A stretch of DNA of 64,000 nt from Escherichia coli (GTDB lineage Bacteria; Pseudomonadota; Gammaproteobacteria; Enterobacterales; Enterobacteriaceae). The DNA is taken from NCBI RefSeq assembly GCF_003790525.1, contig NZ_CP033635.1. The stretch is one strand, 5' to 3'. The position numbers and the translations under genes are program-made. The notes below the pieces were generated by a model. That model searched no databases and was not told the origin of the DNA. It was given only the letters and a program-made list of their open reading frames with translations. Shown one piece after another: positions 33,941 to 61,120 of the stretch. Position 1 is the stretch's first letter, and each line of letters begins with the position of its first letter.

Positions 33941-34375
33941 CAGTGTTTCTCCTTTCGCTCGCCAGAGTAAAAAGCAACCGTTTACGTTCATGAAACTGTC
34001 TAAACACATGCTCGTGGAGTGCCAGTTTTTGCGAGGAAGGGGAGTTAGAGACAGGAATTGCGGAGGCAATCACATAATCGTGGTTAAACCACGAAAATGA
34101 GAAGAGAACCTGACAATGGAATTATCTGTAATTTTCTCATATTGATATTTCATTAATCATTCTGGCATGTCGCACTCTCGCATTTAATCGTTTTTATCTG
34201 GATAGCATTCTTTTGATCGGCAATGTTGAAATAATGAAAGCTGCATAGATTGAGGGGCAATAATTTGAACTCAGTCGCAAAATTATAATTAAATCGGCCA
34301 TGCTACCTAATATATGCCCATTTATTGCATCGCGAAATTTGAGAAGACATAACTCATTAAATGAAAGGGATGCAA

Positions 34376-41120: not shown

Positions 41121-43991
41121 TTATATTTTTTCCAGCGCGGTGAGTATTTTCTCCGGTGTGAAATGCCATTCGCGTAACCAGATGCCGCATGCATCGTGAA
41201 TTGCGATAGCAATCGCCGGAGCTGCGCCATTTACACCGATTTCCGAGATCGATTTCGCCCCGAACGGGCCGACTTTATCGTCGCTCGGCACCAGCACAGC
41301 GCGGAAATCACGCGGAATGTCACCAATTTTCGGTGCGCCGTAACTGCGTAAATCACGCGTTAACGGGTGACCTTCGGCGTCATAAATGATCTCTTCGCTC
41401 ATACTGTGGCCGATAGCTCGCAGAGTGGCACCGTAGATTTGTCCCAACGCTAACTCTGGATTGACCGGTGTACCGCAATCCAGCAAGGCGTAGAATTTAT
41501 CCAGGCGGATTTCACCCGTACGCGTGTTGACGGCAACTTCAGCAAAGTTTGCGCCATACGGGAAGGCGAAATCAGGCGTGATATAACTGCCAGTTCCCAC
41601 CAGTGAACCAAAGCCGGTGCCGGTTTCGCCTTTATGGGCTATCTCTCCGAAACTAACTTCGCCTTTCTTGCCGCGAACGACGCCCGGCGTTGCTAGTTGA
41701 ACATCTGCCACTGGCTCACCCAACATTTGCGCGCCGTGGAACAGGATTTTCTCCCGCAGATTTTCCGCTGCCAAACGCGCAGCGTTACCCGAGAAGCAAG
41801 TACCGGACGAGGCATATGCGCCTTTATCAAACAGTGCATGATCGGTATCACCAGAGATAACATGCACGTCCTGCGGTGGGCAGTGCAGCACTTCTGCTGC
41901 CAGTTTCGTCACCACAGTATCCAAACCAGTACCAATATCCGCACCGCCAGAATGAACGATAAAGGTACCGTCTGATTCCAGTTTGATCATGCAGTTAGCC
42001 TGATCGATATCCGGGATACCCGATTTCTGCATGATAATGGCGACGCCACGACCGATGTGCCAGTCACCGTTTTGTGGTTTTGGTGAAGACCATTGGATCA
42101 TCTCGCGACCCTGACGCAGGATCTCTTCCAGTGCGCAGCTGGCGGCGGAAGGAACGGAGGTCGGCGCTTTACCTTCACCGATTGCACCGAGAATTTTCAG
42201 CTCTTGCCCTTCGTGTACCCGGTTACGTTCGATAATTTCCAGTTGGTCGATCTGTAACTGTTCAGCCAGTTCCGCTAATGCCATGGTGATAGCGAAGTTA
42301 CCTTTCGGTGCGCCATAACCCTGATAAGCACCATTTGGGCAAATGTTGCTGTAGTAGGTGGTGACCTGGAAATCGACGTTATCGCACGGATATAACGGCA
42401 GCGACAGCGCCGGTCCGTTACACGGTACGGTGAGTGAGTGGTTGCCGTAAGGGCCAGTGTTGGCGCGGAAATCCATCTTCACTGCCGTCAGGCGACCATC
42501 TTTTTTCGCTCCCAGTTTGACGGTGACTTTCGCGACGTGACGAGAGGTGTTAGCAATAAACTCTTCTTCACGGGTGTAGCGGAACAGTACCGGACGCCCG
42601 GTCACGCAGGTTGCCCAGGCGCACACTTCTTCCAGCAGGATGTCCTGTTTGGAACCAAAACCGCCGCCAACTCGCTCTTTAATGACATGAACTTTATGTT
42701 GTTTCATGCCCACGAGGCGCGCGACCTGGCGGCGTAAGTGCCATGGTACCTGGGTGGAGGCGTGGATAACCAGACGATCGCCGTCCATACGGGTAAAGCA
42801 GATATGTGTTTCAGTCGGGCACTGCTGCGCCTGCGTTGAGTTATAGGTTCGCTCAATGATCACATCGGCATCGGCAAAGCCTTTGTCCATATCGCCAATA
42901 TGACCATGGATACTGGCAGCGATATTTTTGCGTGGGCGAGAACCGATCGGGAAGTTGATGATCATATGCTCGCCGCGCTGGGCTGCATGGCTGTTATCAT
43001 CTTCCAGAGTATCTGGCGCACCAGCAACATACACCACCGGTTCATCGTGCACCACAGGCGCATCTTCCGCCATTGCCTCGTCAATCGACATTACTGGCTT
43101 AAGCACCTCATATTCAACGTCGATGAGCTTCAATGCTTCGAGCGCAATGTCTTCACTTTCAGCGACGACCGCAGCAACACGATCGCCGACGTGACGCATT
43201 TTCTTGCCGAACATACGGCGGTCAAGCGGTGACGGTTCCGGTGCGCTCTGACCACCCGGGGTATAGTAGATATCTGGGCAATTCAGGTGAGTAATAACGT
43301 GAACGACGCCCGGTAAGGCTTCAGCTTTGCTGACATCCAGATGAGTAATCAGTGCGTGAGCGTGTGGGCTACGTAACATTTTAATGACGCAGGCGTCAGC
43401 CGTTACGCGGTCTTCAACATAGCAGGGTTTCGCCTGCACCATTTTCGCGGCATCAGTTTTAGGATAATGCTTGCCAATGACTTCAAGGTCGTCACGGAAA
43501 GTCGGAGCGATATCAATGGTGGCCTGCGGATTATTTTTACGTGCAACCGCCAGTTCAATGACCTGATAGTATTGCTGCCAGCCAGCATCGCGGCTAAACA
43601 GACCTGAGAGCGCGTCGTCGATCTCTTCGCGGGTAGGTGCGGCGATGCGATCGAGAAGATCGGTGATAATCAGAGCCGCAGCTGGATCGTTATAACCAGA
43701 CTGCACCACGCCAACATCAACCATGGCCTGTTGAACCAGACTTAACTCGTTCCATTTGCCCAGAGATTCTGCGGTACGAATATCTGCCTTCTCTAACTGT
43801 GCGGCAATAAGCAAGGACGCGTTAACGATATTACCGTTAAAGATAATTGCGTCAGAACCGGCAAACCCAAAACCATCATCACTGTTGCGTACAGAGTGCA
43901 TTCCCATGTTAAACAACAGCTTTTGCACGTTTTCGCCTGGATTAACGGTTAGCTCCTGAGGCGCGCCATTTAAAGTAAAGTGGATGATCAT
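41121..43991 (-). CDS. xdhD: Molybdopterin-dependent hydroxylase XdhD (fused 2Fe-2S and Mo-cofactor-binding subunits, xanthine dehydrogenase family)
   Basis: 956-aa ORF MIIHFTLNGAPQELTVNPGENVQKLLF. Confidence 0.88.
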   Translation of the reverse strand: MIIHFTLNGAPQELTVNPGENVQKLLFNMGMHSVRNSDDGFGFAGSDAIIFNGNIVNASLLIAAQLEKADIRTAESLGKWNELSLVQQAMVDVGVVQSGYNDPAAALIITDLLDRIAAPTREEIDDALSGLFSRDAGWQQYYQVIELAVARKNNPQATIDIAPTFRDDLEVIGKHYPKTDAAKMVQAKPCYVEDRVTADACVIKMLRSPHAHALITHLDVSKAEALPGVVHVITHLNCPDIYYTPGGQSAPEPSPLDRRMFGKKMRHVGDRVAAVVAESEDIALEALKLIDVEYEVLKPVMSIDEAMAEDAPVVHDEPVVYVAGAPDTLEDDNSHAAQRGEHMIINFPIGSRPRKNIAASIHGHIGDMDKGFADADVIIERTYNSTQAQQCPTETHICFTRMDGDRLVIHASTQVPWHLRRQVARLVGMKQHKVHVIKERVGGGFGSKQDILLEEVCAWATCVTGRPVLFRYTREEEFIANTSRHVAKVTVKLGAKKDGRLTAVKMDFRANTGPYGNHSLTVPCNGPALSLPLYPCDNVDFQVTTYYSNICPNGAYQGYGAPKGNFAITMALAELAEQLQIDQLEIIERNRVHEGQELKILGAIGEGKAPTSVPSAASCALEEILRQGREMIQWSSPKPQNGDWHIGRGVAIIMQKSGIPDIDQANCMIKLESDGTFIVHSGGADIGTGLDTVVTKLAAEVLHCPPQDVHVISGDTDHALFDKGAYASSGTCFSGNAARLAAENLREKILFHGAQMLGEPVADVQLATPGVVRGKKGEVSFGEIAHKGETGTGFGSLVGTGSYITPDFAFPYGANFAEVAVNTRTGEIRLDKFYALLDCGTPVNPELALGQIYGATLRAIGHSMSEEIIYDAEGHPLTRDLRSYGAPKIGDIPRDFRAVLVPSDDKVGPFGAKSISEIGVNGAAPAIAIAIHDACGIWLREWHFTPEKILTALEKI

Positions 43992-44817: not shown

Positions 44818-46146
44818 TTATGCCAGCGCATCCATCCGACGCCACATACTGGCAGCGGCTTTTCTGGCTTGCGCATAAATGGAATCGCAATCGAAGTTAA
44901 ACTGACGGTCTTCATAGACCATCACACCATTGACCATCACGCTGTGAACGCTGCCTGAGCCCATACCGAAAGCGATATGCCCGGCGATATTGTCTGCCAG
45001 CAGCGGCGTTGGCGAGTTGTAATCACAAATGGTTAAATCGGCTTTGTAACCGGCTTCCAGAAGGCCAAATTTCGCGCCAAAGTTGCGGCTCATCAGTTCG
45101 TTGCCGTTAGCCAGTGCTTTGGCAAAACTGTCAGGCCACAGCGGGCCACCCGCATCGCGATGTTTAAAGAAGGCAAATTTCATCTCTTCAAACATGTCCG
45201 AACCAATGCCGTCCGTTCCCAACGCCAGATTGCGGATGTCGCTAAGGTGATGGTTGTAGCCGACATGGTTGTTCATGTTTGAACGGGCGTTATGCACCAG
45301 GAACGCATCGCGCTGATTGAGTAGGGCGATGTCATCTTTCGACAAGTACAGCCCATGAGCGACCAGCGTTTTGCTGTCGATGAGATCGAATTGCGTCAGT
45401 CGTGCCAGTAGGTCTTTGCCGTACCAGTGGTGACTGTAGGAAACGTCGTAAAGGTCTTCCGCAGCGTGAATATGCAAACCACGACCTGTGGTTTTCACGG
45501 CTTCACGCAGCATCTCCAGACCGGCATCCGGCACGGTAAACGGCGCGTGAGCGCCGATATGTGCTTCCACCAGATACGGCTCGGTTGCTGCTTTCTTCGC
45601 CTCATCAATCTGACGGGCGAAGCGGATGTTTTCTTCTACACCTTCCTGCAACTCTTTGATGCCGTTGTTACGGTCAGTAGTTTCAAAACAGGTCATCGCG
45701 CGCAGGCCAACTTTTAAAAATGCGTTGCGCAATGTGGAGAGCGACCCGTCGATATACGCCGGAGAGGCATGGTGATCGATAACCGATGTACATCCGCTCT
45801 TAATCGCTTCCAGGGAACAAATCAGTCCGCTGTAATAGAGCGACTCTTCATCAAGGGCGCGATCGAGCCGCCACCAGAGATTTTTCAGCGTTGAGATGAA
45901 ATCCGGGCAGGGGGCGATATTTGCCATAATTCCGCGGGAAAGCCCCGAGTAAAAATGGTTGTGCGAGCAGACAATCCCAGGCATCACAATCCGGCCATGC
46001 ATCTCTTTGTAGCTGGCATCGGGGTAGCGTTGCGTCAGGGCATCGCCGATAGCGACAATCACATCATTTTCGATGGCGATATCAACGCCTTCCTGCACTT
46101 TCGCCGGGTGTAACTGCACTGCGGTGACATTCTTCAGAATCAACAT
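44818..46146 (-). CDS. ssnA: Amidohydrolase-family protein SsnA (chlorohydrolase/aminohydrolase-like)
   Basis: ORF track 464 aa; trimmed to MLILKNVTAVQLHPAKVQEG (442 aa). Confidence 0.85.
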   Translation of the reverse strand: MLILKNVTAVQLHPAKVQEGVDIAIENDVIVAIGDALTQRYPDASYKEMHGRIVMPGIVCSHNHFYSGLSRGIMANIAPCPDFISTLKNLWWRLDRALDEESLYYSGLICSLEAIKSGCTSVIDHHASPAYIDGSLSTLRNAFLKVGLRAMTCFETTDRNNGIKELQEGVEENIRFARQIDEAKKAATEPYLVEAHIGAHAPFTVPDAGLEMLREAVKTTGRGLHIHAAEDLYDVSYSHHWYGKDLLARLTQFDLIDSKTLVAHGLYLSKDDIALLNQRDAFLVHNARSNMNNHVGYNHHLSDIRNLALGTDGIGSDMFEEMKFAFFKHRDAGGPLWPDSFAKALANGNELMSRNFGAKFGLLEAGYKADLTICDYNSPTPLLADNIAGHIAFGMGSGSVHSVMVNGVMVYEDRQFNFDCDSIYAQARKAAASMWRRMDALA

Positions 46147-49247: not shown

Positions 49248-49568
49248 AACCCTCTCCTTAGCTTATACAGATATCATTGAGTGACCGGTGTTGAGAAATC
49301 CGGTGGTTTAGGGGGATAGAGCAACAATCGCACCACTCTTGCCAGGTTTGGCGGGAAATATAAAAAAATGTGAGGCGGCTCGAAACTTAATGGCTTTTTG
49401 TGAATGAACTCACAGGTGCCAAATGAGAATTAAAATCACTCCTGAAAATTATTATTGCCAGCACATTTATCACTTTTTCTCTTTTCTCAAAATCAGTGAT
49501 TCCTTATCATTATGATAAAGAGTGCAGGAGGGATTAAATATTTGAACGCAATCGTTTAACTACGTTTT

Positions 49569-50250: not shown

Positions 50251-51021
50251 GTGAAAAGTATAATTGACCCATCGGCATTATTCATTGATTTAGGCGCGCA
50301 GAAACGTCCCACTGTGATTTCTGTTGTTGGGGCTGGGGGGAAAACCAGCTTGCTTTTTTGGCTGGCAGAACTGCTCCAGGCTAGCGGCAGGCGTGTGTTA
50401 ATCACTACGACGACACATATGTTTATGCCAACGTCTCACTGGCCCGTGGTTTTCTGTCGTGATCCCGCCATGCTTCCTCATGCGTCTTTTATATCCCCCA
50501 TTTTATTTTGTTTTCACAGCTGGAAAGCGAACCAGGGAAAAGTGCAGGGATTTACGCCAGAAGCGATTGATGCACTGGTGCAACGACCAGAGTGTGACGT
50601 AATTCTCATTGAGGCAGATGGCTCGCGTGGAATGCCGTTAAAAGCGCCTGATGAGCACGAACCTTGCATACCTAAAAGCAGTTGCTGCGTGATTGCTGTG
50701 ATGGGAGGACATATTTTGGGTGCGAAAGTGAGCACAGAAAATGTCCATCGCTGGTCGCAGTTTGCTGATATTACTGGGTTAACACCTGATGCACCCTTGC
50801 AACTGAGCGATCTCGTTGCGCTGGTTCGCCACCCTCAGGGGGCGTTTAAAAACGTACCGCAAGGTTGTCGGCGAGTCTGGTTCATTAACCGTTTTTCTCA
50901 ATGTGAGAATGCGATTGCGCAAAGCGAGCTCCTTCAACCGCTGCAACAACACAACGTAGAGGCAATCTGGCTGGGCGATATACAAGAACATCCTGCAATC
51001 GCGCGCAGATTTGTGAATTAG
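50251..51021 (+). CDS. yqeC: Selenium-dependent molybdenum hydroxylase system accessory protein YqeC
   Basis: 256-aa ORF with GTG start and P-loop-like VVGAGGKTS. Confidence 0.8.
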   Translation: MKSIIDPSALFIDLGAQKRPTVISVVGAGGKTSLLFWLAELLQASGRRVLITTTTHMFMPTSHWPVVFCRDPAMLPHASFISPILFCFHSWKANQGKVQGFTPEAIDALVQRPECDVILIEADGSRGMPLKAPDEHEPCIPKSSCCVIAVMGGHILGAKVSTENVHRWSQFADITGLTPDAPLQLSDLVALVRHPQGAFKNVPQGCRRVWFINRFSQCENAIAQSELLQPLQQHNVEAIWLGDIQEHPAIARRFVN

Positions 51022-56421: not shown

Positions 56422-57618
56422 TTAAGGTGCTACAGCGTGTTTGCCTTCCCAGACAACTTCGCGGTAGTGCTTCACGTCTGTGTCGCCTTCAGTGCTGATA
56501 ACCAGCACTACGGCATCTTTGTTCAGCGCCAGTTTTTCCATCAGGCTTTGACGTTGCGGGTGATAATGAACCGCTGCGAGAACGCCCAAACCGACAGCGC
56601 CGGATTCACCGGAGATGATGCGCGGGTCGTTGCCGTACGGATTACCCAGCACGCGCATACCTAATGCGGCAACGCTGTCCTGGCAGGAGATGAATTGGGT
56701 GGCGCAGTTACGTAGGATTTCCCAGCCCAGCGGGTTAGGTTCGCCACAGGCCAGGCCCGCCATGATGGTGGCCATATCACCGCCAACGTTGACGATGTCG
56801 CCTTTGACGCCGGAGCGATAAATACAGTCAGCTTTGTCAGGTTCAACAATAATGCTGTGCAGATTTTGCGGGCTGTAGACGTCGACCAGATAACCCAGCA
56901 CACCACCGGCCATTGCACCGACACCAGCTTGCAGCAGAACGTGTGTCGGGGTTACGCCCATTTCACGCATTTGCTCGACGGCTTCATCTGCCAGTGTTGC
57001 GTAGCCTTGCATGATCCAGGTTGGGATTTTGGTGTAACCTTCCCATGCTGTATCCTGTACCACTTCCCAGCCGTGCTGCTGCGCGTGTTGCATGGTCAGG
57101 CGAACGGTATCGTCATAGTTCATATCCGTGACGATGCACTCGGCACCGAGGTTCAGAATGGCGTCAACGCGTTCCTGAGCAGAACCTTTCGGCATGTAAA
57201 TCACCGCATTCTGTCCGAGTTGCTGTGCTGCCCATGCCACACCGCGCCCGTGGTTGCCGTCGGTGGTGGTCGCGAAGGTCATTTTTTCGCCGATGGCATT
57301 TTTCAGATGCTCAAATGACAGCGTTTCGATATCAAGATGATATTTTTCACACAATAATTGAGCGATGGCGTACGCACCGCCGAGCATTTTGAAGGCGTTC
57401 AGACCGAATCGTTTTGATTCGTCTTTGACGAGAATTTTCTTCACACCAAAAAGGTTTGCGAGATCGTCCAGCGCACAAAGCGGTGTTGGGCGATAACCAG
57501 CAATTTTCTGGTGGAACTGGCGCGCCAGTTTGGCCTGGCTTTGCGAAAAGAGCGGTGATGTTTCGCCGTTGAAAAATTTGTTATCGGCGATATCAATCTT
57601 CAATGAGAAAACGGACAT
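56422..57618 (-). CDS. ygeX: Diaminopropionate ammonia-lyase (PLP-dependent)
   Basis: 398-aa ORF MSVFSLKIDIADNKFFNGETSPLF. Confidence 0.88.
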   Translation of the reverse strand: MSVFSLKIDIADNKFFNGETSPLFSQSQAKLARQFHQKIAGYRPTPLCALDDLANLFGVKKILVKDESKRFGLNAFKMLGGAYAIAQLLCEKYHLDIETLSFEHLKNAIGEKMTFATTTDGNHGRGVAWAAQQLGQNAVIYMPKGSAQERVDAILNLGAECIVTDMNYDDTVRLTMQHAQQHGWEVVQDTAWEGYTKIPTWIMQGYATLADEAVEQMREMGVTPTHVLLQAGVGAMAGGVLGYLVDVYSPQNLHSIIVEPDKADCIYRSGVKGDIVNVGGDMATIMAGLACGEPNPLGWEILRNCATQFISCQDSVAALGMRVLGNPYGNDPRIISGESGAVGLGVLAAVHYHPQRQSLMEKLALNKDAVVLVISTEGDTDVKHYREVVWEGKHAVAP

Positions 57619-57675: not shown

Positions 57676-58866
57676 TTATTTCACGCGTTCTTGCGCTTCT
57701 TTCAGCAGTTGCTCGAGCAGTGCACCTGGTTTGGCGTATTTACGGGACAGGATCATCGCGGCGATGATATAAGGCTTCCAGCTGGCTTCTTTGTAGGTAG
57801 CGATACGGTATTTTTCGAATACGCCTTCAGTCACTTCACCTTCTTTACAGGATACACCGCTGATATCAGCTGGCAGGCAGTGCATGTACAGGGCTTCGCC
57901 ATCACGGGTCAGTTCCATCATCTCTTCAGTACAATGCCAGTCTTTGTGTTGCGCGTTCTGTGCCAGACACTGTTTTTCCAGTGCTTTTAAGCCTTCGTGA
58001 TCGTTCGCACGCAGCAATTCAGTACGCTCTTCCATCACTTTGTAAGGTGCCCATGACTTCGGATAAACGATGTCTGCGTCTTTGAAGGCTTCTTCCATGC
58101 TGGTGACCTGACGGAAGCTACCGCCGGAGGCTTTAGCATTGTTTTTAGCGACTTCAACGACATCCGGGATCAGGTCGTAGCCTTCCGGATGGGCCAGGGT
58201 GACATCCATACCGAAGCGAGTCATCAGACCGATGATGCCTTGTGGTACAGAGAGCGGTTTGCCATAGCTTGGGGAGTAGGCCCAGGTCATGGCGATTTTT
58301 TTACCTTTCAGGTTTTCCAGTGAACCAAAGTGTTCACGTAACCATGCCAGGTCAGCCATTGACTGAGTCGGGTGGTCAATATCGCATTGCAGGTTCACTA
58401 AAGCCGGACGTTGCGGCAGCACACCCTGCTTGTAACCGTCATCAAGTGCAGCGCCAACTTCACGCATATAGGCGTTGCCTGCGCCCAGATACATATCGTC
58501 GCGAATACCAATAGCGTCGGCGCAGAAGGAGATCATATTGGCGGTTTCACGCACGGTTTCGCCGTGAGCGATTTGTGATTTGCCTTCGTCGAGATCTTGC
58601 TGTGCAAGGCCGAGCAGGTTAAGCGCGGAAGCATAAGAGAAGCGGGTACGGGTGGAGTTGTCGCGGAATACGGAAATACCTAATCCACTATTAAAGACTT
58701 TGGTTGAGATGTTTTCAGCACGCAGTGCTTTTAATGCTGCGGCAACGTCCAGTACTTGTTTCAGTTCATCTGGCGTCTGTTCCCACGTTAACAAAAAATC
58801 TTTCTCGTGAAGGTGAGAGGTCAGCGAATTGATATCCTTAATCAGCTCATTAACAGTTTTCATCAT
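57676..58866 (-). CDS. ygeW: Carbamoyltransferase YgeW (aspartate/ornithine carbamoyltransferase fold; reported as oxamate carbamoyltransferase)
   Basis: 396-aa ORF MMKTVNELIKDINSLTSHLHEKDFLLTWEQ. Confidence 0.88.
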   Translation of the reverse strand: MMKTVNELIKDINSLTSHLHEKDFLLTWEQTPDELKQVLDVAAALKALRAENISTKVFNSGLGISVFRDNSTRTRFSYASALNLLGLAQQDLDEGKSQIAHGETVRETANMISFCADAIGIRDDMYLGAGNAYMREVGAALDDGYKQGVLPQRPALVNLQCDIDHPTQSMADLAWLREHFGSLENLKGKKIAMTWAYSPSYGKPLSVPQGIIGLMTRFGMDVTLAHPEGYDLIPDVVEVAKNNAKASGGSFRQVTSMEEAFKDADIVYPKSWAPYKVMEERTELLRANDHEGLKALEKQCLAQNAQHKDWHCTEEMMELTRDGEALYMHCLPADISGVSCKEGEVTEGVFEKYRIATYKEASWKPYIIAAMILSRKYAKPGALLEQLLKEAQERVK

Positions 58867-58957
58867 AAAGTCCCGGTAGTGGAATGACAGGCAAAGTGGT
58901 TTATTTCACTGTGACTTGCCAAAGTGATTGGTGTTTTCACAGCTATACCTAGGACTA

Positions 58958-58972
58958 ACAATAAGTGTGCCA
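58958..58972 (-). promoter_or_regulatory. Candidate sigma-54 (-24/-12) promoter for ygeW
   Basis: Minus strand reads TGGCAC-ACTTA-TTGT about 95 nt upstream of the ygeW ATG; -24 element is perfect, -12 has GT instead of GC. The adjacent divergent gene ygeV encodes a sigma-54 activator. Confidence 0.3.
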
Positions 58973-59341
58973 GAATTATCCACGCGGCTGCGAAAGGCTA
59001 ATTTGACGGATAATGTGTGGGGTTGATCACAAATTGATGCCAGCTTCCGGTTGTTTGTAAAATACGAAAACGTTTGGCTTTTTTTATCGCGTTATTTATT
59101 TGCTGCTAAGTATCAGAAATAAGATAAAGGGACAGGCGATCTCTCTTCAGTTTGATAAACTCACCGCCGTAATTCTCATATTGATATAGAAATGTGATAT
59201 CTCTTCCATAATTTCATTAGAAAGTGATAAAAATCTTATGTTTTTATCAAAGCCAATTTCGCCTGAGTTAATATCATCATGATCTATGAACCATCAACGT
59301 CTTCAATGATCGACTTTTAAGTAAGTCTGGAAGGTAAAGCT

Positions 59342-61120
59342 ATGGAGCTTGCTACTACGCAGTCAGTATTGATGCAAATTCAACCGACAATTCAGCGTTT
59401 TGCCAGAATGCTTGCCAGCGTTTTGCAGCTTGAGGTTGAGATCGTTGATGAAAACTTGTGTCGCGTCGCCGGAACGGGCGCGTATGGGAAGTTTCTTGGT
59501 CGCCAGTTGAGCGGCAACTCACGCCTGCTCCGCCACGTCCTGGAAACGAAAACTGAAAAAGTTGTGACACAGTCTCGCTTCGATCCCCTTTGTGAAGGTT
59601 GCGATAGTAAAGAAAATTGCCGCGAAAAAGCATTTCTGGGTACGCCTGTCATTTTACAGGATCGTTGTGTTGGAGTGATAAGTTTGATTGCCGTTACCCA
59701 CGAGCAACAAGAGCATATTAGTGATAATTTACGCGAATTTTCTGATTACGTTCGCCATATATCCACCATTTTTGTTTCTAAACTTCTGGAGGATCAGGGA
59801 CCAGGAGATAACATCAGTAAAATATTCGCGACCATGATCGATAATATGGATCAGGGCGTGTTAGTGGTTGATGCTGATAATCGTGTTCAATTTGTTAATC
59901 AGACAGCTTTAAAAACACTCGGTGTTGTACAAAATAATATTATTGGAAAACCAGTTCGTTTCAGACCATTAACATTTGAGAGTAATTTTACCCATGGTCA
60001 TATGCAACATATTGTTTCGTGGGATGATAAAAGTGAATTAATCATTGGTCAGTTGCATAACATCCAGGGCCGACAACTATTTTTAATGGCGTTTCACCAA
60101 TCGCATACCAGTTTTTCTGTAGCAAATGCACCTGATGAACCGCATATTGAACAATTGGTTGGCGAGTGCCGTGTTATGCGGCAATTAAAACGACTCATTA
60201 GCCGTATTGCACCCAGCCCATCCAGCGTTATGGTGGTTGGTGAAAGCGGCACAGGTAAAGAAGTCGTCGCCCGTGCAATCCATAAGTTGAGCGGAAGACG
60301 GAATAAACCCTTTATTGCTATCAACTGTGCCGCGATTCCGGAACAGCTTCTGGAGAGCGAACTGTTCGGTTATGTTAAAGGCGCATTTACTGGCGCTTCT
60401 GCCAACGGTAAAACAGGGTTGATTCAGGCGGCGAATACGGGCACGCTGTTTCTCGATGAAATTGGTGATATGCCATTAATGTTGCAGGCTAAATTACTGC
60501 GCGCTATTGAGGCGCGTGAAATTCTGCCGATTGGTGCCAGTAGCCCAATACAAGTCGACATCCGCATCATTTCTGCAACTAATCAGAATTTGGCCCAGTT
60601 CATTGCTGAAGGTAAATTCCGCGAAGATCTCTTCTACCGACTTAATGTTATCCCGATAACTCTGCCACCGCTGCGTGAACGTCAGGAAGATATTGAATTA
60701 CTGGTGCATTACTTTTTACATCTGCATACCCGTCGTCTGGGATCGGTTTATCCTGGCATTGCTCCTGATGTCGTCGAAATATTGCGTAAGCATCGTTGGC
60801 CCGGAAACCTGCGCGAGTTAAGCAATTTGATGGAATATCTGGTTAACGTGGTTCCTTCAGGTGAAGTTATCGACAGCACGCTATTGCCACCAAATCTGCT
60901 GAATAATGGCACAACGGAGCAAAGTGATGTAACAGAGGTCAGTGAGGCGCACCTGTCACTTGATGATGCGGGCGGCACGGCGCTGGAGGAGATGGAAAAG
61001 CAAATGATCCGCGAGGCGCTTTCACGTCATAACAGCAAGAAGGAAGTTGCTGATGAACTGGGCATCGGCATTGCTACGCTCTATCGCAAGATTAAGAAAT
61101 ATGAGTTGTTAAACACATAA
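59342..61120 (+). CDS. ygeV: Sigma-54-dependent transcriptional activator (sensory domain, AAA+ domain, Fis-type HTH)
   Basis: 592-aa ORF with Walker A GESGTGKE, GAFTGA sigma-54 contact motif and C-terminal HTH. Confidence 0.9.
   Translation: MELATTQSVLMQIQPTIQRFARMLASVLQLEVEIVDENLCRVAGTGAYGKFLGRQLSGNSRLLRHVLETKTEKVVTQSRFDPLCEGCDSKENCREKAFLGTPVILQDRCVGVISLIAVTHEQQEHISDNLREFSDYVRHISTIFVSKLLEDQGPGDNISKIFATMIDNMDQGVLVVDADNRVQFVNQTALKTLGVVQNNIIGKPVRFRPLTFESNFTHGHMQHIVSWDDKSELIIGQLHNIQGRQLFLMAFHQSHTSFSVANAPDEPHIEQLVGECRVMRQLKRLISRIAPSPSSVMVVGESGTGKEVVARAIHKLSGRRNKPFIAINCAAIPEQLLESELFGYVKGAFTGASANGKTGLIQAANTGTLFLDEIGDMPLMLQAKLLRAIEAREILPIGASSPIQVDIRIISATNQNLAQFIAEGKFREDLFYRLNVIPITLPPLRERQEDIELLVHYFLHLHTRRLGSVYPGIAPDVVEILRKHRWPGNLRELSNLMEYLVNVVPSGEVIDSTLLPPNLLNNGTTEQSDVTEVSEAHLSLDDAGGTALEEMEKQMIREALSRHNSKKEVADELGIGIATLYRKIKKYELLNT

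Follow-up and report, generated by a model that had tools for sequence, protein, structure and literature searches.

What governs transcription of the divergent genes ygeW and ygeV in Escherichia coli is the question raised by the 475-bp spacer between them, which occupies 58867-59341 of the 64,000-nucleotide stretch of contig NZ_CP033635.1 analysed here (the window). On one side lies ygeW (57676-58866, minus strand), which encodes a knotted carbamoyltransferase and heads the ygeW-dpaL(ygeX)-ygeY-hyuA-arcC(yqeA) run; on the other lies ygeV (59342-61120, plus strand), which encodes a sigma-54 enhancer-binding protein with an N-terminal PAS-type region, an AAA+ domain, and a Fis-type helix-turn-helix (HTH). 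A preliminary description of this DNA had placed a sigma-54 promoter for ygeW and a perfect inverted repeat, offered as a possible enhancer for YgeV, in a region that it called AT-rich and otherwise unexplained. The spacer is indeed AT-rich, at 37% G+C against 51.5% for the whole window. We consider it probable that it is a conventional divergent sigma-54 control region, with YgeV boxes and a CRP-like site. YgeV probably does not dock chiefly at the palindrome; a much better conserved inverted repeat about 50 bp away is its likelier site.

The promoter itself can be located precisely. The minus strand of 58958-58972 reads TGGCACACTTATTGT, which is the element TGGCAC-N5-TTGT of the preliminary description, and it forms part of the 17-mer CTGGCACACTTATTGTT, read from 58973 to 58957. 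The -24 element, CTGGCAC (58973-58967, minus strand), carries the GG dinucleotide at 58970-58971; 10 bp downstream, where GC would be looked for, the spacing is right and the dinucleotide is GT (58958-58959). This had been recorded as one deviation at -12, and it is present as TTGT, but it is invariant in the 13 genera aligned below and common to the pspA and pspG promoters. The presence of GT in place of GC does not exclude membership among sigma-54 promoters. On the window strand, GTGCCA and TAACAATAA are invariant in the 13 genera (TGGCAC-NN-TTATTGTTA on the gene strand), and because of this invariance we regard TTGT at -12 as a fixed feature. Between the 3' end of the element and the first ATG of the ygeW open reading frame (58866) there are 92 nt, or 95 nt if the RefSeq start (58863) is taken, in keeping with the distance of about 95 nt first described. 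Extrapolation from the -12 position predicts a start near 58946 and an ygeW leader of ~80 nt (58867-58946, minus strand).

A position weight matrix scan with a sigma-54 model had been proposed as a check, and the ygeW element comes first in the window. With a matrix built from 41 other intergenic sites validated by chromatin immunoprecipitation (ChIP), the ygeW site being left out, the ygeW 17-mer ranks 1 of ~128,000 window positions at 16.07 bits (training median 15.9, range 8.8-21.2). In shuffled sequence, a score of 16 bits or more turns up ~0.6 times per 64 kb, which we estimate as ~0.002 for one strand of 475 bp. The score alone is not rare, and the case thus rests on position, conservation, and published ChIP data. 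The next-best hits in the window, both strong and both on the minus strand, fall in coding regions of the cluster: ATGGCGCAAACTTTGCT at 41541-41557 (15.6 bits; in the 3' portion of xdhD, with xanQ downstream) and CTGGCACGACTGACGCA at 45392-45408 (13.9 bits). Neither was found in the text of the ChIP sequencing (ChIP-seq) paper discussed next, and therefore we do not take a matrix score by itself as evidence.

The sigma-54 reading of the element is correct and has already been published. Table 1 of Bonocora et al. (2015, PLoS Genet, PMC4591121) lists CTGGCACACTTATTGTT as the motif of ChIP-seq site OS30, on the plus strand in K-12 coordinates, with b2870 ygeW as the downstream gene at a distance of 80 nt and a ChIP fold above threshold (FAT) of 3. 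This 17-mer is identical to that read from 58973 to 58957 in the window, so OS30 and the window site are the same object, oriented toward ygeW. What that study reports at the ygeW site is sigma-54 occupancy, and not transcription, a start site or dependence on YgeV (PMC4591121). Further, Shimada et al. (2021; PMC8743547) report a peak for RpoN holoenzyme in the ygeV/ygeW spacer by genomic systematic evolution of ligands by exponential enrichment. Lamoureux et al. (2023) credit sigma-54 promoters upstream of xdhABC and ygeWXY to Reitzer and Schneider (2001); the same work defines a "YgeV iModulon" that contains these operons, including ygeWXY. In the literature, data on an rpoN-dependent start site for ygeW or on its expression in mutants were not found.

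To read the remainder of the spacer, we aligned it across 13 genera: Escherichia, Citrobacter, Pseudocitrobacter, Atlantibacter, Trabulsiella, Raoultella, Intestinirhabdus, Kluyvera, Serratia, two "Enterobacter," Pluralibacter, and Cedecea. The orthologues were collected by a protein search with YgeV of Enterobacter sp. Bisph1, the E. coli protein as query having returned 120 near-identical E. coli entries; Bisph1 was the one true orthologue from a scan of contigs with YgeV, in which the other matches were generic AAA+ peptide patterns. The alignment contains six or seven conserved blocks, and the view of the spacer as otherwise unexplained is not borne out. Within E. coli, the spacer is found in 5180 of 5426 complete genomes and is 100% identical in several chromosomes. 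The window, which represents another E. coli lineage, differs from MG1655 at nine spacer positions, and five E. coli strains vary at 23 of the 475 positions; none of these differences falls in a conserved block.

Among the blocks, the one that we regard as the likely YgeV enhancer, or upstream activating sequence (UAS), and as the best candidate for that role is D1 (59171-59189), the strongest YgeV/DioR-type box of the spacer (DioR is the clostridial counterpart introduced below). It reads TTCTCATATTGATAT in E. coli and TT.TCA...TGA.A in the alignment, has its core TCTCATATTGATA at 59174-59186, and is centred about 234 bp upstream of the predicted ygeW start (-234). Its distance from GTGCCA is 207-211 bp in the 13 genera, though some 130 bp between blocks B and C cannot be aligned. 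Such fixed spacing over unconserved DNA is what a looping enhancer predicts. Two weaker boxes of the same type flank it. Block C (59142-59160, centre about -205) has a perfect right arm, TGATAAA, and a left arm reduced to CA; its CA-N3-TGATAA (59148-59158) is invariant in the 13 genera, and in Cedecea the box is complete. Block F (59269-59287) has its core TATCATCATGATC at 59272-59284, 58-70 bp upstream of the ygeV ATG, and the box is complete in E. coli and in Enterobacter sp. Bisph1; the TATC within TAATATCATCATGATC is invariant, and every one of the 13 genera keeps F at a distance from D1 of 97-101 bp, mostly 98. We treat F as a candidate autoregulatory site, a candidate -10 region of ygeV, or both.

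The same box recurs upstream of the other sigma-54 promoters of the cluster. Upstream of ygfT (OS32) there is the 13-mer TCTCATATTGATA, identical to the D1 core; upstream of ygfK (OS31), the perfect palindrome TATCATAATGATA; and upstream of xdhA (OS29), both ACTCATATTGATA and TATCACATTGATT. Relative to the predicted starts, the box centres lie at -234 and -205 for ygeW, -202 for ygfK, -199 for ygfT, and -131 and -152 for xdhA. We scanned a 66-kb region (66,055 positions) that consists of the window and the xdhA upstream region. With a matrix made from the 13 orthologous D1 sites, the best hits other than D1 itself are those of ygfT (the identical 13-mer), ygfK, and xdhA (two sites), and nothing in the unrelated first 33 kb of the window exceeds 14.5 bits. 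The pattern TMTCA-N3-TGATA with one mismatch allowed has 15 matches against 4.8 expected, a count reached in none of 100 shuffles.

An independent approach to the box comes from Clostridia. Nie, Dong and Yang (2019, BMC Genomics, PMC6615313) named a clostridial activator DioR in Clostridiales and predicted for it a regulon comprising dpaL-pyrC-argE, ygeW-ygfK-ssnA-ygeY, yqeB, pbuX, and xdhABC, with the function listed as "unknown"; the UAS sites in their supplement include, for example, ATTTATCATAATGATAAGG and TATTATCATTTTGATAATA. From ten published clostridial sites only, we built a DioR matrix and applied it to the 66,055 positions. Its top four hits are the ygfK upstream region (19.9 bits), the uacT/ygfT spacer (19.4), D1 (17.7, rank 3), and the xdhA upstream region (15.8), so that four hits reach 15.7 bits or more where 0.19 would be expected, one in each spacer that has a ChIP-mapped sigma-54 site. 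Blocks C and F reach 10.2 and 11.5 bits, respectively, with this matrix. The Firmicute homologues of YgeV collected here are 35-39% identical to it, and at their loci clusters of TATCA-N3-TGATA boxes lie 100-290 bp upstream of TGGCA-N6-TTGC promoters. The HTH stretch LGIGIATLYRK of E. coli YgeV is shared by two of the three aligned clostridial homologues (L004 and L006), and the third (L008) differs at two residues. Given the matrix hits and the shared HTH stretch, we suggest that the DioR box has its proteobacterial counterpart in the E. coli enhancer.

A metagenome-assembled genome of Clostridium that carries a YgeV homologue (L004, 555-569) has a sigma-54 promoter, TGGCACACTTATTGC, that equals the ygeW element except for its last base, C in place of T; DioR-type boxes lie 90-190 bp upstream of it. 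In Kluyvera, Intestinirhabdus, and Raoultella (L087 4313-4481, L088 4294-4670, L089 4337-4495), a gene for a 549-amino-acid major facilitator superfamily transporter lies directly downstream of ygeV and is preceded by a sigma-54-like promoter and, upstream, by the box TCTCAGAGTGATA. This arrangement suggests that the transporter gene is an additional member of the YgeV regulon, absent from that position in E. coli.

Between promoter and boxes lies block B (59016-59031), a CRP-like site. It reads TGTGG-GGTTGA-TCACA, agrees with 9 of 10 consensus positions (~0.014 matches of this quality expected in 475 bp, by estimate), and is centred at about -77.5. In the alignment it is TG.GA-N6-TCAC, with TG and TCAC invariant and a fixed offset of 49-51 bp from GTGCCA in all 13 genera. 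CRP-like matches with two mismatches each also occur at -68.5 of ygfT and -67.5 of xdhA. A perfect CRP consensus, TGTGAATGAACTCACA (TGTGA-N6-TCACA), was seen at 49399-49414, about -97.5 of ygfK, where it sits between a YgeV-type box (49502-49520) and the ygfK sigma-54 promoter (49320-49336). The positions -67.5, -68.5, -77.5, and -97.5 differ by steps of roughly 10 bp. No conserved match to the IHF core WATCAANNNNTTR with at most one mismatch was found between promoter and boxes; only the YgeV boxes themselves match it. A 2025 study describes replacement of a "native Crp-binding site" in the ygeW-ygeV spacer and reports that glucose represses urate degradation in the wild type and not in the engineered strain (PMC12507026), and the CRP-like site fits the reported glucose repression. 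We infer that CRP may supply both a bend in the loop and catabolite control; this is the least secure step of our reading.

The palindrome was the other element singled out in the preliminary description, and as a sequence it is there as described, a perfect 9-bp inverted repeat at 59225-59249 made up of TGATAAAAA (59225-59233), a 7-nt spacer (59234-59240), and TTTTTATCA (59241-59249). Relative to ygeW its centre is at about -291; the ygeV ATG lies 105 bp downstream of that centre. Statistically it is marginal, barely beyond chance: when the spacer was shuffled 5000 times with its dinucleotide counts preserved, 249 of the shuffled versions had a perfect 9-bp inverted repeat whose loop was no longer than 20 nt (p ~0.05). 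The form TGATAAA-N11-TTTATCA is kept in five of the 13 genera, namely Escherichia, Citrobacter, Pseudocitrobacter (with one mismatch), Atlantibacter, and Trabulsiella, in which the loop is variable; in Trabulsiella both arms have changed symmetrically, to TGATAAAGA-N7-TCTTTATCA. The other eight genera have lost the left arm and retain the promoter and the remaining blocks. At least 90% of the 13 genera retain the right-arm core TATCAA, and the arm lies 70-71 bp from D1 in those genera in which the TATCA pattern is present. Among the five E. coli strains the arms show no polymorphism, against an expectation of ~0.9 variable positions, and strain polymorphism at 23 of 475 positions is too sparse to say much about the palindrome. 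The arms are the half-sites TGATAAA and TTTATCA facing outward, with 11 nt between the cores, and DioR boxes face inward with 3 nt. The spacer holds seven TGATA/TATCA pentamers against 1.5 expected (P ~0.0005), six of them within 59141-59290. The palindrome is thus part of a half-site cluster around the full boxes. With this cluster and the conserved right-arm core, it may provide an accessory contact for YgeV or have a role at the ygeV promoter.

How, then, should the palindrome be read? That it is the principal YgeV enhancer for the ygeW promoter, as was first proposed, we now consider quite improbable. The proposal keeps one part of its basis, in that the repeat is perfect, its arms carry the YgeV/DioR half-site, and in five genera the arms are conserved around a variable 11-nt centre, with the symmetric change in Trabulsiella and no arm polymorphism among the E. 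coli strains. Scored as full boxes with the clostridial matrix, however, the arms reach -0.9 and -15.3 bits; all predicted DioR sites and the ygfK, ygfT, xdhA, and D1 boxes point inward with 3 nt where these arms point outward with 11; the left arm is lost in eight genera that retain the promoter, D1, C, and F; and at -291 the palindrome is farther out than any box at the other three sigma-54 promoters, upstream of which no comparable palindrome was seen. A shuffling p of only ~0.05 adds little. Nor do we favor the opposite extreme, in which the palindrome is a chance product of AT-rich DNA rich in TGATA/TATCA half-sites and has no function as a palindrome, although we would give that explanation a real if lesser chance. 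It is in accord with the 5% of shuffles that match, with the 37% G+C of the spacer, with the loss of symmetry in eight genera, and with a second perfect 9-bp inverted repeat (59151-59159 with 59243-59251) that reuses the same right arm. Against it stand the conserved arms, variable loop, and two-sided Trabulsiella change in the other five genera and the conservation of the right-arm core. In our reading, the palindrome arms are at most low-affinity accessory contacts for YgeV or elements of ygeV autoregulation; alternatively, their symmetry is incidental. The clade-restricted conservation makes a real and secondary function possible.

A role on the ygeV side can be stated more specifically. 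The palindrome, or its right arm TATCAA together with block F, may belong to a sigma-70 promoter or operator of ygeV that serves autoregulation by YgeV or responds to another factor, for example in indole induction. We hold this as a tentative possibility, somewhat unlikely as it stands. Genes for divergently transcribed enhancer-binding proteins are often autoregulated; here the palindrome centre lies 105 bp from the ygeV ATG, the right arm and F keep their fixed distances from D1, and no sigma-54 motif points toward ygeV, with plus-strand intergenic hits of at most 1.5 bits. In enterohaemorrhagic E. coli, ygeV is strongly induced by indole (PMC9426417). What speaks against the proposal is that no acceptable -35/-10 pair includes a palindrome arm or F, and that the candidate from the consensus scan (59034-59063) is not conserved. 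That sigma-70 consensus scan of the spacer gave two weak promoter-like sites, no more than in shuffles. The pairs TTGATA/CATAAT and TTATCA/TAATAT were rejected as ygeV promoters for their spacers of 20-21 bp. It is also conceivable, and in our view very unlikely, that the TTATCA-N3-TGATAA boxes are bound by another regulator of the purine/urate cluster and that the YgeV site lies elsewhere. The box is AT-rich and has a loose resemblance to stretches of other AT-rich operators; it was compared by eye with the consensus sequences of Fur, FNR, and ModE. It accompanies ygeV homologues and sigma-54 promoters from Enterobacteriaceae to Clostridia, however, the HTH recognition stretch of these homologues is almost unchanged, and the boxes stand at enhancer-like distances upstream of all four promoters. 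Fur, FNR, ModE, ArgR, and Nac were each considered for the box, and none fits in arrangement (again by eye against consensus sequences, not by matrix tests).

Returning to the reading of the spacer as a divergent sigma-54 control region, we can put its parts into a sequence of events. Sigma-54 RNA polymerase would form a closed complex on CTGGCACACTTATTGTT, a binding step that the published ChIP-seq data show, and transcription of ygeW-dpaL-ygeY-hyuA-arcC would start near 58946. The C-terminal HTH of YgeV would bind the TTATCA-N3-TGATAA repeats, strongly at 59171-59189 and more weakly at 59142-59160 and 59269-59287, as the comparative evidence suggests. YgeV has the features that the next step calls for: GAFTGA at residues 347-352, the Walker A motif GESGTGKE, the Walker B motif DEIG, and the Pfam domains PF00158 and PF02954. 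Bound YgeV would assemble into an active AAA+ oligomer and contact the closed complex by DNA looping, and ATP and the GAFTGA loop would open the promoter, which is the established mechanism for this protein family. The CRP-like site at -77.5 would most likely supply a bend that aids the loop and would place the operon under catabolite control. The ygfK, ygfT, and xdhA promoters appear to repeat these parts, each combining a sigma-54 site with a YgeV box 130-200 bp upstream of it and a CRP-like site between -67.5 and -97.5, and the four promoters would then form one YgeV regulon. The palindrome arms would be low-affinity accessory contacts for YgeV, part of ygeV autoregulation, or functionless. 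A bolder version, which we regard as doubtful, has CRP rather than IHF as the required looping protein at all four promoters, always on one face of the helix (-67.5, -68.5, -77.5, -97.5) and placed between the promoter and YgeV boxes 130-235 bp upstream, and a single YgeV assembly over 59142-59287 (one full box and six half-boxes, the palindrome included) that activates ygeW over a distance and simultaneously shuts off the ygeV promoter.

Several points weigh against the reading that we prefer. At ygeW the strong box is unusually distant (-234) in comparison with xdhA (-131 and -152), and the sigma-54 site there shows low occupancy by ChIP (FAT 3). The sites upstream of ygfK, ygfT, and xdhA are supported in E. 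coli alone, and the clostridial DioR sites behind the independent matrix are themselves computational predictions; in the literature searched, we found no experiment on DNA binding by YgeV or DioR. For the CRP-like site, most genera read TGCGA-N6-TCACG (8 of 10 positions), the score comes from a consensus and not from a curated CRP matrix, and matches with two mismatches, such as those at ygfT and xdhA, are common by chance. Within the Escherichia-related clade the palindrome, with its conserved arms, variable loop, and two-sided change in Trabulsiella, shows more than a purely accidental one would. Lastly, the model leaves block D2 (59190-59213) unexplained. This block reads AAATGTGAT...CATAATT, with TGTGA and CATA.TT (59193-59213) invariant in the 13 genera; it always lies 19 bp from the start of D1, is among the best conserved stretches of the spacer, and agrees with the CRP consensus at 8 of 10 positions (TGTGA-N6-TTCCA).

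The arrangement has parallels in better known systems. At pspA and pspG, the activator is PspF, the enhancer sequences are different, and IHF acts as the bending protein. The two promoters share with ygeW both TGGCA at -24 and TTGT at -12 (TTGGCACGCAAATTGTA and TTGGCATGATTCTTGTA); their ChIP occupancy is far higher (FAT 21 and 15, against 3 for ygeW), and both are marked C, for experimentally confirmed in EcoCyc, in the table of Bonocora et al. (PMC4591121). The DioR regulon resembles the E. coli cluster in gene content (dpaL, ygeW-ygfK-ssnA-ygeY, yqeB, pbuX, xdhABC), in having a homologous activator, and in its type of box, of which ATTTATCATAATGATAAGG is an example; the DioR core TTTATCATAATGATAAGG recurs unchanged in the ygfK site of E. 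coli (49502-49520, gene strand). DioR boxes lie 175-390 bp upstream of the gene start. They differ in coming as pairs 18-21 bp apart, whereas ygeW has one strong box and degenerate ones with CRP-like sites interposed.

For the overall layout, the prpR-prpBCDE locus of E. coli and Salmonella offers a comparison. There PrpR is the activator and catabolite control reportedly acts through CRP, as Lee, Newman and Keasling are said to have described in 2005. Like ygeW-ygeV, this locus combines a divergent activator gene, a sigma-54-dependent catabolic operon, a CRP site in the spacer, and glucose repression; unlike it, prpR belongs to another activator branch, with another effector and enhancer sequence, and IHF is also involved. 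At glnAp2, two strong inverted repeats and several weak sites nucleate the active oligomer of NtrC, and this example is our model for how D1 could cooperate with weak boxes and half-boxes, including the palindrome arms. NtrC sites differ from YgeV boxes in sequence (TGCACC-N5-GGTGCA), lie nearer the promoter, and serve a protein that is activated by phosphorylation.

The locus belongs to a larger purine/urate cluster made up of uacT, ygfT, ygfS, ghxQ, guaD, xanQ, xdhD, ygfM, ssnA, ygfK, mocA, yqeC, yqeB, arcC, hyuA, ygeY, dpaL, ygeW, ygeV, and xdhCBA. From ygeW to uacT, it represents in E. coli the anaerobic pathway by which gut bacteria degrade urate and purines, a pathway under study and being engineered with a view to hyperuricaemia and gout. 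Iwadate and Kato (2019) are cited for the finding that ygeV is needed for anaerobic urate use, and the paper in which ygeV is renamed isrR explicitly leaves the direct targets of IsrR open. In the literature searched, we found no definition of a DNA site or an effector for YgeV of E. coli. The ygeW promoter was mapped in 2015, and our work on that part therefore adds nothing new. The new content is limited to a candidate DioR-type YgeV box and a phased CRP-like site at four E. coli promoters, both put forward from sequence comparison. All binding and activation steps for YgeV and CRP are ones that we infer, and the region follows the standard sigma-54 enhancer pattern, which is unsurprising. 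Present at each of the cluster's four sigma-54 promoters, the candidate box TTATCA-N3-TGATAA is open to experiment and would tie the E. coli regulon to the clostridial DioR regulon, and the candidate CRP site is a possible route to the known glucose repression. For experimenters, the candidate sites show which bases to mutate, and for strain engineers, which to retain or remove.

Other searches of the spacer gave little. Small open reading frames in it include nothing notable, a consensus scan for terminators (a GC-rich hairpin followed by a T run) found none, and an Rfam search of the ygeW leader and spacer returned sub-threshold noise only and no family. An RNA-based reading of the leader and spacer was rejected on this ground and on that of the predicted fold (z -0.7). 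Within the leader, the ~25 nt 5' of the ygeW start codon (58867-58895; GCCTGTCATTCCACTACCGGGAC on the gene strand) are strongly conserved in the 13 genera (alignment columns 18-43), far in excess of what a ribosome-binding site alone would need, and no stable fold is predicted there (z -0.7). In E. coli HUE1 (L097, 526-575), ygeV is annotated as a truncated pseudogene, and the spacer is intact except for point differences, one of which is at 59240 in the palindrome loop.

A PurR-box-like palindrome, ACGAAAACGTTTGGCT, occupies 59064-59079 and agrees at 13 of 16 positions with ACGCAAACGTTTGCGT, which we take to be the PurR operator consensus. With at most three mismatches, the 64-kb window contains two such matches (0.5 expected), this one and another at 33972-33987 in the uacT/ygfT spacer, 32-47 bp upstream of the uacT start. 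The former shows conservation in E. coli, Citrobacter, Atlantibacter, and Trabulsiella alone, and its position 59078 varies within E. coli. The two sites may reflect control by PurR or by another LacI-family protein.

Elsewhere in the cluster, a high-scoring YgeV-type box, TATCATCTTGATA, lies inside dpaL/ygeX at 57327-57345 and is identical in Citrobacter amalonaticus (L092, 501-513); it may serve as an accessory site within the gene, or its conservation may simply be that of coding sequence. Another YgeV/DioR-type box, TTTTCTCAATGTGAGAATG (13.9 bits), is found at 50893-50911, at the 3' end of yqeC and ~160 bp upstream of yqeB. No sigma-54 promoter was found downstream of either box, the best match near yqeC scoring 5.3 bits. 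For Clostridioides difficile, DioR is predicted to act on a SigL promoter upstream of yqeB. The ygfT sigma-54 motif (34313-34329) reads TATGCCCATTTATTGCA in the window and TATGCCCGTTTATTGCA in K-12 (OS32), and OS32 carries the lowest matrix score in the published table (PMC4591121).

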